Assembly: GCF_030013595.1 (NCBI RefSeq) | Contig: NZ_CP122768.1 | Direction: 5' to 3' (one strand) | DNA: 64,000 nucleotides | DNA from: Escherichia coli | GTDB taxonomy: Bacteria; Pseudomonadota; Gammaproteobacteria; Enterobacterales; Enterobacteriaceae | In this document: positions 28,392 through 36,950 of the stretch, in pieces | Layout of the letters: each line of letters opens with the position of its first letter | Numbering within the stretch: position 1 is the stretch's first letter | Translations under genes and position numbers: made by a program | Notes under the pieces: generated by a model | Databases searched by the model: none | What the model saw: only the letters and a program-made list of their open reading frames with translations | What the model was told of the DNA's origin: nothing

Positions 28392-29279
28392 TTAAGATTC
28401 AGGTGTAAATTGCCAACGAGTTTCGATGACCAGCGGCCTATCTGGTGTCACCAATTCCGGCGTTAGATTTATTGCGTTAGGTGCCTGAGTCAGCGGGTTA
28501 ATACAGGTGGCATCGGGCTGTTTATCAAATACCACCAGACTGTTTGCAGAAGAAATCATGGTCATCGCGAGTTTACCAGGCCACAGTAACTTAACCTTCA
28601 CCCCGTCATAAAAACCAAAACAGTCATCCCAGGGACCGGCTTGAGGAGAGATACGATTTCCAGTTGGCAGTTCATCACTACCCGCTTCTTCTTGCCAGTC
28701 TGCATCAAAAAGCACCTGCAACGATTCTGTATTTTGCGGAGTCAGCTTTTTCGCAAACCACGGATGCCAGCCTGCGGAGGCCGGGAATGTATCGGCATAT
28801 GAATGGACTTCCAGTTGCAAAACCAGCGCATCGTTCTCCAGCAAAAAAGTCTGAATCACTTCCCCTTGCCAGGGCCACGGTGAAGCCAGGGGCATACGTA
28901 AAGTCAGGGAATCTGCTGTTTTGTCGATGATTTCCCACGTTGAGTAACAAGCCATACCATGCAACGCATGTGGTGGTTTATTGGCGGGTAAAGAATAACA
29001 TTGCCCACCAGCATTCAGCGTCGCATTCCCCAGTCGCCCTGCCCACGGCACCATTGGGAAACAGCCATACTGAAAAGCTCTTCGCTGCGGCTGCCATTGG
29101 CGTAATACTTCAGAACCAAATGCCTTTAACGAGGTTATCCTGGCACCATCATGCGGATAAATCTGCAGGTGAATATTGCCTTTTTCCAGCGTCACTAACT
29201 CTCCTACAGGCCCAGGCCATGGCGCGTCAAACGCCTGTTGTAGCGCCAGGTAATGCTCGTTTTTTCGTTCAGTTTTCAT
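28392..29279 (-). CDS. Aldose 1-epimerase (mutarotase) family protein, YihR-like
   Basis: 295 aa; last gene of the minus-strand operon; overlaps upstream transporter by 11 nt. Confidence 0.7.
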   Translation of the reverse strand: MKTERKNEHYLALQQAFDAPWPGPVGELVTLEKGNIHLQIYPHDGARITSLKAFGSEVLRQWQPQRRAFQYGCFPMVPWAGRLGNATLNAGGQCYSLPANKPPHALHGMACYSTWEIIDKTADSLTLRMPLASPWPWQGEVIQTFLLENDALVLQLEVHSYADTFPASAGWHPWFAKKLTPQNTESLQVLFDADWQEEAGSDELPTGNRISPQAGPWDDCFGFYDGVKVKLLWPGKLAMTMISSANSLVVFDKQPDATCINPLTQAPNAINLTPELVTPDRPLVIETRWQFTPES

Positions 29280-30618
29280 GAGATTGTTCCCTTATGTAGC
29301 GGTAAGAAGCGGTTTCTTGTTCATCGGTCGGCTCAATCAGCCAGACGCAAACAAAGGAAAGAACTGAGACAGCAAATAAAAACAGAGCGACATACCACGG
29401 TTTTCCTCCCCCTAGCGCCAGCAAACTTGAGGCGATAAGGGGGCTTAGTCCGCCAAGAATCGCGGAAAATTGATAAGCAAAAGAAAGGCCGGTATATCGT
29501 ACTTTGGTACCGAACATGCGGGTGAAAAGTGTTGGCTGCACGGCAAACATCATCGTCGGACCTAAGTTGTAGCCGAGGATCATACTGCACCAGATGATGA
29601 GCGTACTTTTGCTATCCAATAATAAGAAGAAAGGAAACGCGAACAGGACACAAAATCCTGCTCCCGACAAATACAGACTTTTTTGACCTATACGATCTGA
29701 TAACCATCCAACCAATGGACAACTGAAAATACCGATCGCCGAGGCAATCAACATACCCGTCAGGGGAATATCTCGCGACAATGCTAATTGGCTGGAAATA
29801 TAGACAATACCAAAGGCGTTAATAATATTAGAGGAGACACTTTCCGCCAGCCTCGCACCCAGTGCCAATAAAATATTTCGTGGATGTTTTTTGAATAATT
29901 CAATCAACGGAGGAACGGACTTTTCTTTATTATTCGTCGTTTTTTGCTTTTGAAAATCCAGCGTTTCTTCGGTATGCAGGCGGATAAACAGCCCAACGAT
30001 CAACATCACCGCAGAAAGCCAAAACGGAATGCGCCATCCCCAGGAGAGAAACTGCTCCGAAGTAAGAAAATGGTTACAGAGAGCAAAAATACCGGTTGCC
30101 AGCATAATACCCACAGACGCAGCCGTTTGCGGGAGTGAACCTAAAAATCCGCGTCGGGATTCGGGCGCTGATTCTATGGTCATCAATGCCGCTCCGCCGT
30201 ACTCGCCACCAAGACCAAAGCCCTGAATTAAACGTAGCACCATTAATATGAGCGGTGCCCAAATGCCAATTTCCTGATACGTCGGAATAAAACCAATCAA
30301 AAATGTGGAGCAACCGACAATAGCCAGCGTCCAGATAAGTGTTATTTTTCGCCCGATTTTATCGCCAAAATGACCAAAGACGATGCCACCTAAAGGACGA
30401 GTCAGAAAACCAACACCAAAGGTCGCAAAGGAAGCTATAAGACCTATAAAAGGATCGCTGTCTGGATAAAACAGCGGTGCAAATACCAGTCCTGCTGCCG
30501 TGCCAAAAATAAAGAAGTCATACCATTCCATTAACGCGCCTGCGAAACTGCCCATAACGACACGTCTCATGGCTTTACCGGAAAGCCCTTCACGCGGTGC
30601 GGGTAACTTTTCAGACAT
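29269..30618 (-). CDS. MFS transporter, metabolite:H+ symporter (MHS) type
   Basis: 449 aa, about 12 TM segments; N-terminal WYDFFIFG and GRK motifs typical of ProP/KgtP/ShiA-like transporters. Confidence 0.8.
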   Translation of the reverse strand: MSEKLPAPREGLSGKAMRRVVMGSFAGALMEWYDFFIFGTAAGLVFAPLFYPDSDPFIGLIASFATFGVGFLTRPLGGIVFGHFGDKIGRKITLIWTLAIVGCSTFLIGFIPTYQEIGIWAPLILMVLRLIQGFGLGGEYGGAALMTIESAPESRRGFLGSLPQTAASVGIMLATGIFALCNHFLTSEQFLSWGWRIPFWLSAVMLIVGLFIRLHTEETLDFQKQKTTNNKEKSVPPLIELFKKHPRNILLALGARLAESVSSNIINAFGIVYISSQLALSRDIPLTGMLIASAIGIFSCPLVGWLSDRIGQKSLYLSGAGFCVLFAFPFFLLLDSKSTLIIWCSMILGYNLGPTMMFAVQPTLFTRMFGTKVRYTGLSFAYQFSAILGGLSPLIASSLLALGGGKPWYVALFLFAVSVLSFVCVWLIEPTDEQETASYRYIREQSHEN

Positions 30619-30716
30619 AATTTTCCTCTCCTGGTAGGCGAGAAATCTGGGATACGAACCACTAAACGTGGGCAGTTTGAATTAATGCGCATCGGCTTAA
30701 ACCGATGCGCATTAAA

Positions 30717-35225: not shown

Positions 35226-36122
35226 ATGACCAGAATTGCATGCGTGGGTATCACAGTTCAGGACAGGATTTATTCTTTGCCCACTCTGCCGGAGGGCGGC
35301 GGGAAATATCAGGCAAATCATTATCTTGAGATTGGTGGCGGCCCGGCAGCAACAGCCGCTGTTGCAATCGCAAAGCTTGGCGTGGAGGTTGATTTCATCG
35401 GTCGCGTCGGCGATGACAGTTGTGGAAATACCTTACTTGCAGAACTTGAGGGTTGGGGCGTCAATACCGCATTTTGCCGCCGATATCCTAACGCCCGTTC
35501 GTCGCAATCAGCGATCCTCGTTGATCAGCATGGCGAACGGATTATCGTTAATTATCCAAGTCCTGATCTCGGTACTGATGCCGAATGGTTAGAAGCGATC
35601 GATTTCTCTCGTTATGATCTGATTCTGGCCGATGTTCGCTGGCATAGCGGTACTGAAAAAGCATTCTCGCTAGCGCGCCTTGCGGGTGTGACAACGCTTT
35701 TAGACGCCGATATGACACCGCAGGATATTTCTCCACTTGTCGCGCTTGCCGATCACGCCGTGTTCTCAACACCAGGGCTGAAACGCATGACTGGCCTGCA
35801 GTCACCTGAAGAAGGTTTGTTCCAGGCAACGACACAAACAGCAGGTAAAGTGTATGTTACGCTGGGTTCTGAAGGATCGTTGTGGATTGAAGATGGTCAT
35901 TTGTGTCAACAGGAGGCATTTTCTGTCAATGTGGTTGATACCACTGGAGCAGGCGATGTTTTTCACGGCGCACTCGCGGTAGCGTTGGCAGAAAAAATGC
36001 CAACAAAAGAGGCTATTCGTTTTGCCAGTGCGGTTGCCGCGATGAAATGTACCCAGCCTGGCGGTCGGGCCGGCATTCCTAATCGTGAGCAAACCGAATC
36101 ATTTTTGTCACTTTATGCGTAA
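35226..36122 (+). CDS. PfkB-family sugar kinase (YihV-like)
   Basis: Start set to ATG 35226 giving 298 aa; C-terminal GAGD anion-hole motif ([14 protein letters not shown]). Confidence 0.8.
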
Positions 36123-36161
36123 AATGGTAAACATCTACCGAGGAGGGGCAAGGGAGTATTC

Positions 36162-36950
36162 ATGAGTATCATCGAAGTGACAGGTAATCCACGCCATGAC
36201 CAACTCGTTCATCTAATCGCAGAACGCGGTTATATGAATATTGAAGAACTGGCACAACTGCTGGATGTTTCAACGCAAACCGTGCGCCGGGATATCCGAA
36301 AACTCAGTGAGCAGGGCTTGATCACCCGTCATCATGGAGGGGCCGGGCGCGTCTCCAGCGTCATGAATACCGCTTTTGAGCAACGGGAACTATCGCTCAC
36401 CGCCGAGAAACGGGCGATCGCTGAGGCAGTCGCCGATTACCTTCCCGAACGCTGTACCGTCTTTATCACCATCGGTACAACCGTAGAAGCCGTTGCCAGG
36501 GCATTACTCAACCGGCGTGATTTACGCATTATCACTAACAGCCTACGTGTGGCACAGATTCTTTATAAGAATCAGGATATTGAAGTGATGGTGCCGGGAG
36601 GCACTTTACGCGCTCATAACGGCGGGATTATCGGCCCAGGAGCCGTGGATTTTATTGAAGGCTTCCGCGCAGATTATTTAATCACCAGTATAGGTGCCAT
36701 TGAACATGACGGCACCCTACTGGAATTTGATGTAAATGAAGCGTTAGTCGCGAGAACGATGATTAAACATGCGCGGAATACATTGTTAGTGGCCGATCAT
36801 ACGAAGTTTGCCGCGTCTGCTGCCGTTTCAATTGGCAATGCACGGAATGTCAGGGCTTTTTTTACTGATGCCCCGCCTCCCAATTCTTTCTGCCAGTTGT
36901 TAAGTGAAGAGAATGTTGAACTGGTGGTTGCCGAGCAAGAAGTATCCTGA
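36162..36950 (+). CDS. DeoR-family transcriptional regulator (YihW/CsqR-like)
   Basis: 262 aa; N-terminal HTH and DeoR C-terminal effector domain. Confidence 0.8.
   Translation: MSIIEVTGNPRHDQLVHLIAERGYMNIEELAQLLDVSTQTVRRDIRKLSEQGLITRHHGGAGRVSSVMNTAFEQRELSLTAEKRAIAEAVADYLPERCTVFITIGTTVEAVARALLNRRDLRIITNSLRVAQILYKNQDIEVMVPGGTLRAHNGGIIGPGAVDFIEGFRADYLITSIGAIEHDGTLLEFDVNEALVARTMIKHARNTLLVADHTKFAASAAVSIGNARNVRAFFTDAPPPNSFCQLLSEENVELVVAEQEVS

Follow-up and report, generated by a model that had tools for sequence, protein, structure and literature searches.

An intact eight-gene module between yihX and yihN of Escherichia coli with a putative second entry into sulfo-EMP metabolism

In the 64-kb stretch of Escherichia coli DNA analysed here (the window), the slot between yihX and yihN holds an intact, self-contained eight-gene catabolic module, with no truncation, in place of the K-12 sulfo-EMP cluster, which serves the use of the plant sulfosugar sulfoquinovose. 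The module combines a kinase, aldolase, reductase and repressor of sulfo-EMP type with a front end made of a Zn-dependent dehydrogenase (ADH), two MFS carriers and a PF01263 protein. Judged from sequence, it may feed the sulfo-EMP back end by a second route, with sulfofructose made from a reduced C6 sulfonate by an NAD-type polyol dehydrogenase; we give this reading as a whole a probability of roughly 0.4. If true, a sulfonated nutrient other than sulfoquinovose feeds the last three enzymes of the pathway in about a quarter of E. coli strains (the cluster is carried by 1,325 of 5,426 complete genomes). Nissle 1917 and E2348/69 are two strains that have it.

All eight ORFs were found at the coordinates given in Table 1, both in the ORF listing and in the RefSeq annotation of E. 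coli HCP5S3_I2, a 100%-identical genome. The flanks closely match K-12 (yihX 99%, yihN 99.8% identity). Junction alignments place the end of homology at 28318 on the left and its restart at about 36959 on the right, and megablast showed that query bases 1-46 and 8687-8737 alone are common to the query and K-12-type genomes. The K-12 order is yihX-csqR-yihV/yihU-T-S-R-Q-P-O-ompL-yihN, as the earlier note had stated, and the four-gene block common to both is inverted relative to the flanks. No homologues of YihQ, YihS, YihO, YihP or OmpL were detected across the 64-kb window by tblastn with the K-12 proteins. These comparisons bear out the earlier description of the locus as a replacement by an inverted cassette that lacks the sulfoquinovosidase, isomerase, GPH carriers and porin and brings in a Zn-ADH and two MFS carriers. 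Each of the eight genes evolves under purifying selection (dN/dS 0.02-0.15 against the copy in an Escherichia cryptic clade).

Table 1 Features of the yihX-yihN slot in the window
Feature	Coordinates	Strand	Remarks
Variable segment, ~8.64 kb	28319..36958	.	Stands in for the ~11.9-kb K-12 csqR...ompL segment; megablast and junction alignments
Hairpin	28341..28381	-	Just 3' of last operon gene; possible terminator or stabiliser, without U-run
Aldose-1-epimerase-family (PF01263) protein, 295 aa	28392..29279	-	Pfam PF01263, 78.8 bits
MHS-type (metabolite:H+ symporter) MFS carrier, 449 aa	29269..30618	-	NCBIfam models
Perfect 15-bp stem-loop	30682..30715	-	Between the two carrier genes; terminator scan
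Second MFS carrier, 477 aa	30717..32150	-	Related to sugar porters and aromatic-acid symporters
Zn-dependent medium-chain dehydrogenase, 336 aa	32220..33230	-	Polyol-dehydrogenase clade; probably NAD-type
Class I (DeoC/LacD-family) aldolase, 295 aa	33263..34150	-	Sulfofructose-1-phosphate aldolase type; 66.7% identical to YihT
Beta-hydroxyacid dehydrogenase, 292 aa	34175..35053	-	Sulfolactaldehyde-reductase type; 72.6% identical to YihU
Divergent control region	35054..35225	.	Homologous to K-12 yihV/yihU intergenic region
PfkB kinase, 298 aa	35226..36122	+	Sulfofructose kinase type; 67.3% identical to YihV
DeoR-family repressor, 262 aa	36162..36950	+	CsqR/YihW-like; 71.5% identical to CsqR

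The back end is that of sulfo-EMP metabolism in both overall similarity and detail. Aligned with their K-12 counterparts YihV, YihT, YihU and CsqR, the kinase, aldolase, reductase and repressor show 67-73% identity, and the value for the repressor agrees with the 72% reported for YihW of strain Nissle 1917 (PMC12608037). The sulfonate-pocket and catalytic residues of the sulfo-EMP enzymes have been defined crystallographically (Sharma et al. 2021, PMC8006165), and every one of them is retained in the window proteins. The kinase keeps the sulfonate triad K27-N109-R138 as well as D13, S95, D162 and D244; the aldolase keeps the Schiff-base Lys and the pocket residues A26, S226, S227 and R253, which are invariant across 25 module aldolases; and the reductase keeps R123, N174 and S178. 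In addition, the reductase scores 580 bits on the sulfolactaldehyde-reductase equivalog NF012005 (NCBIfam, cut-off 348) and far lower on tartronate-semialdehyde reductase models.

Of the module proteins, the dehydrogenase is the best conserved: it shares 94% identity with Citrobacter and 64-70% with Streptomyces and R. palustris, and has a dN/dS of 0.03. The residues that bind the catalytic Zn (C42, H64, E65 and E149), the structural Cys4 site (C94, C97, C100, C108) and the G173xGxxG178 motif are invariant. The nearly invariant E197 provides an acidic residue where the second Rossmann strand ends, a feature typical of NAD enzymes, and the protein is probably NAD-type. RspB is its best match among solved relatives, which further include ketose reductase and threonine, sorbitol and galactitol-1-P dehydrogenases. 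The nearest characterised relatives (RspB, ketose/sorbitol, L-idonate-5 and galactitol-1-P-5 dehydrogenases) oxidise secondary alcohols in polyols whose tails are neutral, carboxylate or phosphate, and no aldose-1-dehydrogenase is among them. The family carries its own signature, namely a NLCEPPQVAGFRAPGF loop with Arg117 plus R271 and R274, which is missing in RspB and ketose reductase.

The MHS carrier reached 410 bits on the ShiA model and 407 bits on TIGR00883, both under the cut-off, and the second carrier gave sub-threshold NCBIfam subfamily matches only; identities to their counterparts in modules of other genera are 57-88% and 62-92%, respectively. The PF01263 gene (dN/dS 0.15) has 11 bases in common with the MHS gene upstream of it. 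His107, His172 and Asp218 of its product are invariant among 29 family members. The previous label 'mutarotase' needs qualifying, as the protein shares only 27% identity with YihR (over 164 aa) and, in the E. coli clade, has Asn in place of the canonical catalytic Glu. Conservation of this mutarotase-family gene and its translational coupling to the MHS carrier suggest a cyclic hemiacetal sugar and speak against an alditol, a hint that the Asn substitution weakens.

The arrangement aldolase-ADH-MFS-MHS(-PF01263) recurs at 29 loci in the genome scan (L007-L035) and at a Streptomyces locus (L004). Among the taxa represented are Citrobacter, Phytobacter, Mixta, Erwinia, Leminorella, Budvicia, Pantoea, Vibrio, Sutterella, Succinivibrionaceae, Propionivibrio, Telmatospirillum, Rhodopseudomonas, Roseospira and Propionibacteriaceae. 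The front end adjoins an SFP-type aldolase, of either class I or class II, in Gamma-, Beta- and Alphaproteobacteria and in Actinobacteria. Genes flanking the loci are unrelated, and no homologues of YihS, SqvD, YihQ, YihO/P or OmpL lie within 10 kb. By these comparisons of sequence and gene order, the front end of dehydrogenase, carriers and PF01263 protein is a conserved unit. A class II aldolase replaces the class I enzyme in Vibrio, Leminorella, Budvicia and Pantoea, and the modules of Alpha- and Betaproteobacteria and Actinobacteria draw their kinase and reductase from other PfkB and HIBADH lineages. Such non-orthologous displacement of aldolase, kinase and reductase points to a conserved function. 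The K-R-N triad is missing in kinases of the Alpha-, Betaproteobacterial, Actinobacterial and Pantoea-type modules; N174 and S178 are missing in the reductases of the first three groups and kept in Pantoea-type reductases. Sulfonate specificity is thus less certain for modules other than those of the E. coli, Citrobacter and Vibrio types, and we count these losses against our reading.

What the sequences show (gene content, homology, conserved residues, recurrence across phyla and purifying selection) leads us to infer catalysis, carrier roles and substrate as follows. One carrier would import a free C6 sulfonate rather than a sulfoquinovoside. The NAD-type dehydrogenase would then oxidise the C2 hydroxyl to yield 6-deoxy-6-sulfofructose, both step and presumed direction being predictions; a candidate substrate is a sulfo-hexitol, e.g., sulfoquinovitol (6-deoxy-6-sulfo-D-glucitol). 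The kinase would form sulfofructose-1-phosphate, the aldolase would cleave it to DHAP and sulfolactaldehyde, the reductase would convert the latter to dihydroxypropanesulfonate (DHPS), and the second carrier would export DHPS. That a sulfonated substrate is handled via sulfofructose-phosphate to sulfolactaldehyde appears likely; the specific dehydrogenase entry step is put forward tentatively. The earlier note had suggested a variant pathway that keeps the kinase, aldolase and reductase steps and is entered through another substrate, with the Zn-ADH perhaps oxidising an alditol or sugar acid. As far as sequence reaches, this suggestion is supported by the fully retained pocket residues, by the conservation of the front end beside SFP-type aldolases across phyla, and by the nearest relatives of the ADH, which are secondary-alcohol dehydrogenases of polyols and sugar acids. 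Against an alditol, no C6 sulfo-alditol is known from nature, and the literature searched makes no mention of sulfoquinovitol. Its conversion to sulfofructose would have a carboxylate analogue in the described oxidation of L-gulonate to D-fructuronate (PMC5788505).

Sulfoquinovose itself is unlikely to be the substrate. In such a glycosidase-free sulfo-EMP variant, the PF01263 protein would act on the anomers and the Zn-dehydrogenase would stand in for the YihS isomerase, either by redox-neutral isomerisation with cycling NAD(H) or by first reducing the sugar to the alditol and then re-oxidising this at C2. By pathway position, the PF01263 protein and ADH would match YihR and YihS, the two carriers would match YihO/YihP, and the coupling of the PF01263 gene to a carrier gene fits this assignment. 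However, isomerisation of aldoses is not known to us from any medium-chain Zn-dehydrogenase, the nearest ADH relatives use acyclic secondary alcohols, and the canonical catalytic Glu is absent from the E. coli-clade PF01263 protein. Published data on Nissle 1917 bear on both sides (PMC12608037). The strain grows on sulfoquinovose at about the K-12 level without yihS, which we count against our own reading, and its repressor is partially released from DNA by sulfoquinovose. Yet sulfoquinovose does not induce the cassette, the repressor responds weakly, and the transcriptome resembles scavenging and gluconeogenesis rather than sulfoglycolysis; the non-induction and the weak response count in favour of our reading.

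A carboxylate sugar acid is still less probable as the substrate. L-Gulonate, for example, would yield D-fructuronate on oxidation; phosphorylation and cleavage would then give DHAP and tartronate semialdehyde, and the reductase would turn the latter into glycerate. RspB as the best solved relative, the name L-gulonate 5-dehydrogenase that some sources give to family members, and the carboxylates typically carried by MHS proteins would fit this route, as would the lack of sulfonate-pocket residues in kinases of the Alpha-, Betaproteobacterial, Actinobacterial and Pantoea-type modules and in reductases of the first three groups. In the window, by contrast, the YihV, YihT and YihU counterparts keep each of these residues at 67-73% overall identity, and the reductase passes the sulfolactaldehyde-reductase equivalog; sister modules have class II aldolases with 500 bits to characterised SFP aldolases, and glycerate would make a second carrier for export needless.

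The long/short dimorphism at this locus has already been published (Kaznadzey et al. 2025, PMC12608037). Their "truncated short cassette yihTUVW", found in Nissle 1917 and many B2/pathogenic strains, is the same object by locus, reversed orientation and YihW identity (~72%); four genes were listed there, whereas we find eight intact ones. The dehydrogenase, the two carriers and the PF01263 gene are mentioned in neither text nor supplement, and these four prove, by sequence comparison, to be the module's most widely conserved part. That the locus is a decaying yih remnant reduced to yihTUVW, with a retained regulatory role beside four unrelated neighbours, would fit the description of a short, sulfoquinovose-uninduced form with weaker repressor binding (PMC12608037), but is very improbable given eight intact genes under constraint and four 'extra' genes that belong to the same operon and accompany the aldolase in four bacterial classes. 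Moreover, as the common genes are only 67-73% identical to those of K-12, they are old alleles and not products of recent truncation.

Compared with the K-12 cluster (ompL-yihOPQRSTUVW), the module thus shares the slot, the back end with its pocket residues and a homologous divergent operator region, and differs in its inverted orientation, its lack of sulfoquinovosidase, YihS, GPH carriers and porin, its unrelated carriers, Zn-dehydrogenase and distant PF01263 protein, and its non-induction by sulfoquinovose in Nissle 1917. RspB/GulD (L-gulonate 5-dehydrogenase), GatD (galactitol-1-phosphate 5-dehydrogenase) and sorbitol dehydrogenase belong to the same superfamily as the window ADH and follow the same logic, in which an anionic-tailed polyol is oxidised at the hydroxyl beside its terminal CH2OH to a 2-ketose open to a PfkB kinase and aldolase; the window enzyme is only ~30% identical to them, has its own signature and presumably accepts a sulfonate tail. 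The E. coli ydj cluster, with Zn-dehydrogenases, the PfkB kinase YdjH and the aldolase YdjI, shows the same superfamily and entry logic. Hybrid sulfo-EMP1/2 clusters with class II SqiA in Hafnia paralvei and Yersinia aldovae (Sharma et al. 2023, PMC10665668) have the same regulator-kinase/reductase-aldolase back end, and the class II aldolases of the Leminorella and Budvicia modules are close to the characterised SFP aldolases HpSqiA and YaSqiA (Leminorella 500 and 492 bits, roughly 80% identity as read off the printed alignment). The Hafnia cluster (L087) continues with a mutarotase, SqvD-type isomerase, GH31 sulfoquinovosidase, two GPH carriers and a KdgM porin, unlike the ADH modules, which continue with ADH-MFS-MHS-PF01263. 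In organosulfonate cluster 2 of Paracoccus wurundjeri, the medium-chain Zn-ADH MDP0926266 likewise lies beside a sulfofructose-kinase-like PfkB kinase and an SFP-aldolase-like PF01791 aldolase, with no isomerase in the cluster (PMC12421959). MDP0926266, which did not oxidise sulfolactaldehyde in vitro (PMC12421959), shares only 27% identity with the window ADH and is not its orthologue.

The control region contains a conserved central block that aligns with K-12, Citrobacter and Hafnia, and an inverted repeat with 14-nt arms (35111-35124 and 35134-35147; 93% complementary). Both YihW proteins bind both versions of this region (PMC12608037). The hairpin behind the last operon gene folds at -19.4 kcal/mol (z = -4.4; equally good folds in 0 of 200 shuffles), and the 98-nt intergenic region that holds the stem-loop between the carrier genes reaches -37.5 kcal/mol (z = -6.3).

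The module sits between yihX and yihN, and its eight open reading frames lie where the earlier note had put them: an ORF listing agrees with the RefSeq annotation of a 100% identical genome (E. coli HCP5S3_I2, from pig faeces), which has the same eight gene boundaries. The flanks are close to those of K-12 (yihX 99% and yihN 99.8% identical), in which the annotated order is yihX-csqR-yihV, then yihU-yihT-yihS-yihR-yihQ-yihP-yihO-ompL-yihN; the K-12 gene order and protein sizes given in the earlier note were correct. Homology to K-12 ends at 28318 and restarts at ~36959, both breakpoints being intergenic, and ~8.64 kb in the window stands where K-12 has ~11.9 kb. 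Comparison with the annotated K-12 region also confirmed that the block common to both is inverted relative to the flanks. With K-12 queries, no homologue of YihQ, YihS, YihO, YihP or OmpL was found in the entire 64-kb window, which bears out the reported absence of a sulfoquinovosidase, the YihS isomerase, GPH transporters and the OmpL porin.

Genes of the module, with positions in the window
Feature	Position	Strand	Basis
PF01263 protein	28392-29279	-	ORF listing and RefSeq annotation of identical genome
MHS-type carrier, 449 aa	29269-30618	-	ORF listing and RefSeq annotation
MFS carrier, 477 aa	30717-32150	-	ORF listing and RefSeq annotation
Zn-dehydrogenase	32220-33230	-	ORF listing and RefSeq annotation
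Class I aldolase	33263-34150	-	ORF listing and RefSeq annotation
Reductase	34175-35053	-	ORF listing and RefSeq annotation
PfkB kinase, divergent from minus-strand genes	35226-36122	+	ORF listing and RefSeq annotation
DeoR regulator	36162-36950	+	ORF listing and RefSeq annotation

In E2348/69-type genomes, the same cassette directly abuts typA, and yihL, yihM and yihN are missing, unlike in the window, where these three genes occupy 37010-40075; the cassette thus occurs in at least two flank configurations. In the long-form (K-12-type) cassettes of E. coli ZF8-1 and 23CRST029, the yihS-yihQ stretch includes an additional gene with a TauE/SafE sulfite exporter annotation, which would make a third version of the locus. 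Elsewhere in the window, a 604-aa ORF in a stretch of low GC content (~0.37-0.41) lies on the minus strand at 23136-24950 between yiiE and fabY, a place where K-12 lacks it. It has no NCBIfam match, and its RefSeq annotation is divided between a 'transposase' and a partial hypothetical protein.

How close the kinase, aldolase, reductase and regulator are to their K-12 counterparts had been left to pairwise alignment, which places them as divergent (67.3% identity to YihV, 66.7% to YihT, 72.6% to YihU and 71.5% to CsqR, respectively). The sulfonate pockets, as mapped by crystallography (Sharma et al. 2021, PMC8006165), comprise K27-N109-R138 for the kinase, R253 and A26 with the Schiff-base K193 for the aldolase, and N174, S178 and R123 for the reductase. 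In our alignments, the window kinase keeps the K27-N109-R138 triad, the residues D13 and S95 that bind sugar hydroxyls, and the catalytic D244, the aldolase keeps Lys193 and the A26/S226/S227/R253 pocket, and the reductase keeps R123, N174 and S178. Moreover, the reductase scored 580 bits against NF012005, the NCBI curated equivalog for sulfolactaldehyde 3-reductase (cut-off 348). The window proteins cover the sulfofructose kinase, sulfofructose-phosphate (SFP) aldolase and sulfolactaldehyde reductase of the sulfo-EMP pathway, and, judged by residues and model score, they make up a sulfo-EMP back end. An isomerase-like gene for the sulfoquinovose-sulfofructose step, whether of the YihS (PF07221) or the SqvD (PF02952) type, is absent among the eight. 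The module likewise has no match to the GH31 sulfoquinovosidase YihQ or to YihO, YihP and OmpL; sulfoquinovosidase and GPH-type carriers are usual, not obligatory, parts of the pathway.

Two forms of the yih cassette have been reported in E. coli and Shigella, one long and the other a "truncated short form (yihTUVW)" that lies reversed at the same locus, e.g. in Nissle 1917 (Kaznadzey et al. 2025, PMC12608037). The window matches the short form, with yihT/U/V/W homologues at the yihX-side locus, in reverse orientation, without yihOPQRS, and with a YihW ~72% identical to CsqR. In that study, the short form was not induced by sulfoquinovose, its YihW (72% identical to CsqR) bound DNA more weakly and was released less well by sulfoquinovose, short-form genomes had no yihS homologue elsewhere, and Nissle 1917 still grew slowly on sulfoquinovose. 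It is the only paper on the E. coli form, and treats the cassette as truncated and its purpose as unclear. Its text and supplement mention no dehydrogenase, extra carriers or epimerase gene, and the supplement holds no expression data on these four. A 2026 review of sulfoquinovose catabolism gives no such variant, and searches with the RefSeq accessions of the module proteins, with sulfoquinovitol-like names, and with sulfofructose plus polyol or sorbitol dehydrogenase returned nothing relevant in the literature searched. The long/short dimorphism is already known, and the literature searched contains neither the complete set of genes nor what it means. The recognition of the 'short cassette' as a complete alternative module, whose dehydrogenase and carrier front end is conserved across phyla, appears to be new.

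The first member of this front end, the Zn-dehydrogenase (ADH), has the features of a Zn-dependent medium-chain dehydrogenase: its homologues match Pfam PF08240 and PF00107, and the catalytic Zn ligands C42, H64, E65 and E149, the structural Zn cysteines C94/C97/C100/C108 and the Rossmann GxGxxG (G173-G175-G178) are invariant in the family alignment. A nearly invariant Glu ends the second Rossmann strand, a position at which Glu favours NAD over NADP. The ADH belonged to none of the characterised specificity groups compared (sorbitol, L-gulonate, L-idonate, galactitol-1-P, threonine dehydrogenase etc.) and scored far under the cut-off of all NCBIfam equivalog models (at best 165 bits versus 376). 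The best PDB matches reached 100-133 bits; the nearest structures were RspB, whitefly ketose reductase, threonine dehydrogenases, sorbitol dehydrogenase, galactitol-1-phosphate 5-dehydrogenase, L-arabinitol 4-dehydrogenase and L-idonate 5-dehydrogenase. Each of them oxidises secondary alcohols, and no aldose 1-dehydrogenase is among them. On these comparisons, the ADH is a separate subfamily. Its family signature consists of a NLCEPPQVAGFRAPGF loop with Arg117, plus R271 and R274, whereas RspB and the ketose reductase lack it; one may speculate that the three arginines bind an anionic tail.

Paracoccus wurundjeri MDP0926266 was considered as an assayed orthologue and ruled out, as the sequence translated from the supplement is only 27% identical to the ADH. 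This protein increases in abundance on sulfofucose and did not oxidise sulfolactaldehyde in vitro (PMC12421959); given the low identity, the negative assay cannot be transferred to the window ADH. In cluster 2 of P. wurundjeri, an organosulfonate cluster, this Zn-ADH, unrelated to that of the window, stands beside a PfkB kinase and a PF01791 class I aldolase, with no isomerase; entry through a dehydrogenase may have a parallel there.

Of the other front-end proteins, the carrier of 449 aa is similar to metabolite:H+ symporters, e.g. ShiA. The PF01263 protein has the aldose 1-epimerase domain (78.8 bits) and the two invariant histidines, His107 and His172, which align with those of YihR, and lacks the catalytic Glu. 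This general base of the xxEPxx motif, Glu304 in L. lactis GalM, is present in YihR (AVEPMS) and is an Asn in the window (CINPLT; CINP at residues ~259-262). Asn is shared by the clades of E. coli, Citrobacter and Vibrio, and Glu is found in those of R. palustris, Leminorella and Pantoea. The Asn makes the activity of the protein uncertain; the gene is under purifying selection despite it.

ADH homologues of 55-94% identity occur in many genera. Three that were looked up share the gene set: Rhodopseudomonas palustris BisB18, one Streptomyces, which lacks the PF01263 gene, and Vibrio rhodolitus, with a class II aldolase in place of the class I enzyme. A genome scan with one genome per species gave 29 loci with an ADH identity of at least 56%, whose contents were tabulated by tblastn. 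The aldolase-ADH-MFS-MHS(-PF01263) run recurs in an Escherichia cryptic clade, Citrobacter, Phytobacter, Mixta, Enterobacter, Erwinia, Trabulsiella, Edaphovirga, Leminorella, Budvicia, Tenebrionibacter, Pantoea and Vibrio, in gut Sutterella and Succinivibrionaceae genomes, and in Propionivibrio, Telmatospirillum, Roseospira, Pleomorphomonas and a Propionibacteriaceae genome. No homologue of YihS, YihQ, YihO, YihP or OmpL was detected within 10 kb of any related module by tblastn (34 loci for YihS). The flanks of ten related loci contained no desulfonation gene, glycosidase or reductase to hint at the substrate, only unrelated housekeeping genes; since these vary by genome, the module is self-contained. 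By this distribution, the front end is a conserved unit and not a set of leftover neighbours.

The Leminorella class II aldolase scored 500 bits against HpSqiA and YaSqiA (~80% identical, as read off a printed alignment), the characterised class II SFP aldolases of Hafnia paralvei and Yersinia aldovae. Modules of Alpha- and Betaproteobacteria and Actinobacteria use other PfkB and beta-hydroxyacid-dehydrogenase lineages (~30% identity), which lack the pocket residues; for the class I aldolase, all 25 module copies have the same pocket. Interchanging aldolase classes and differing kinase and reductase lineages indicate, at the level of sequence, that the function and not merely the DNA segment is conserved. 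K-12 YihT falls within the diversity of the module aldolases (62-70% identity to most, 48-51% to the three most divergent modules), so the two E. coli forms are old alleles rather than the result of recent truncation. An origin of HpSqiA from an ADH-type cluster was ruled out: it is encoded in a canonical long cluster, together with an isomerase, a GH31 enzyme, two GPH carriers and a porin. Related Enterobacterales thus combine a common back end with different front ends. The typA/yihN...yihX slot is also where the ADH module lies in Citrobacter and Phytobacter. Citrobacter sp. NCU1 carries two modules (loci L020 and L031) that differ in gene order, with ADHs 69% and 56% identical to that of the window; both have class II aldolases, and L020 adjoins a reductase and a regulator ~80% identical to those of the window. 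Such paralogues suggest that substrate specificity is not uniform across the family.

Within E. coli, at least 80% of the 8.7-kb segment is present in 1,325 of 5,426 complete genomes (24%), and the long-form yihS-yihQ segment in 3,886; the front end was not found on plasmids. The dN/dS of the eight genes against the Escherichia cryptic-clade copy is 0.02-0.15 (dS 0.17-0.35), and the ADH is the module protein best conserved in Citrobacter (94%). Purifying selection and cross-phylum conservation contradict the idea that the cluster is a decaying remnant, which we regard as highly improbable. An 'SQ metabolism' neighbourhood, its allele not stated, co-segregates with epithelial invasion in an AIEC study of E. 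coli from IBD patients (PMC11879602).

Since the module is self-contained and its back end starts from sulfofructose, the dehydrogenase, alone or together with the PF01263 protein, would have to make this sugar from the imported compound. We propose that the ADH oxidises a 6-deoxy-6-sulfo-hexitol (sulfoquinovitol or its manno epimer) to sulfofructose, because enzymes of this clade typically oxidise the hydroxyl beside the terminal CH2OH of acyclic polyols. The kinase would then phosphorylate sulfofructose, the aldolase would cleave the product to DHAP and sulfolactaldehyde, and the reductase would convert the latter to dihydroxypropanesulfonate (DHPS), which the second carrier would export. 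Analogous oxidations are known for phosphate tails (galactitol-1-phosphate to tagatose-6-phosphate, sorbitol-6-phosphate to fructose-6-phosphate) and for a neutral tail (sorbitol to fructose). The carboxylate-tail counterpart is the oxidation of L-gulonate to D-fructuronate (PMC5788505). That a sulfonated substrate passes through the predicted SFP back end is probable (approximately 0.7). An undescribed sulfoglycolytic entry reaction, in which a Zn-dependent dehydrogenase would produce sulfofructose either from a sulfo-alditol or as a redox isomerase acting on sulfoquinovose, falls just short of even odds, and the oxidation of a sulfo-hexitol as the entry step remains tentative, somewhat below even odds.

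Sulfoquinovose itself could be the substrate, with the dehydrogenase replacing YihS by redox chemistry. The analogous position in the pathway, the PF01263 gene and the growth of Nissle on sulfoquinovose would fit this; however, the cassette is not induced there and the Nissle transcriptome is of a scavenging type (PMC12608037), and no precedent is known for a redox replacement of YihS, which makes this reading unlikely. A sulfoquinovose-fermenting Citrobacter isolate (PMC6278857) does not decide between the substrate readings. A carboxylate sugar acid would be in keeping with the relatives of the ADH and with the MHS carrier, but is hard to reconcile with sulfonate pockets that are intact, with the model score of the reductase and with aldolases of SqiA type, and we consider it unlikely.

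Sulfoquinovose breakdown is a large part of the sulfur cycle, and in the gut DHPS feeds hydrogen-sulfide-producing bacteria. Surveys and annotation pipelines spot sulfoglycolysis by sulfoquinovosidase and isomerase genes; the module, which also occurs in gut Sutterella and Succinivibrionaceae, has neither, yet its sulfofructose-to-DHPS back end is complete. If a natural C6 sulfo-alditol is oxidised, gut and soil would contain an organosulfonate nutrient that has so far escaped notice; if the ADH is a sulfoquinovose redox isomerase, it would replace YihS. In either case, about a quarter of E. coli strains (B2, Nissle 1917, EPEC E2348/69) and bacteria of several phyla would gain a route to DHPS, and surveys with yihQ/yihS as gene markers would miss such strains. 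For the fields of sulfoglycolysis and gut sulfur metabolism, the conserved front end turns the open question of the 2025 paper into directly testable enzymology, namely which compound the dehydrogenase converts; this could prove to be a new organosulfonate nutrient or a new way to sulfofructose.

Between the divergent genes (35054-35225), a central block is conserved with the K-12 yihV/yihU region and holds a palindrome with 14-nt arms, which fits the cross-binding in published EMSAs (PMC12608037). A sigma-70 consensus scan carried little information, with no promoter-like site in this region and fewer sites overall than in shuffles. Between the two carrier genes, a perfect 15-bp stem-loop (30682-30715) directly follows the stop codon of the 477-aa MFS gene, and the 98-nt intergenic region that holds it folds at -37.5 kcal/mol (z = -6.3). 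It could act as an internal attenuator or mRNA stabiliser that splits the operon into two expression units.
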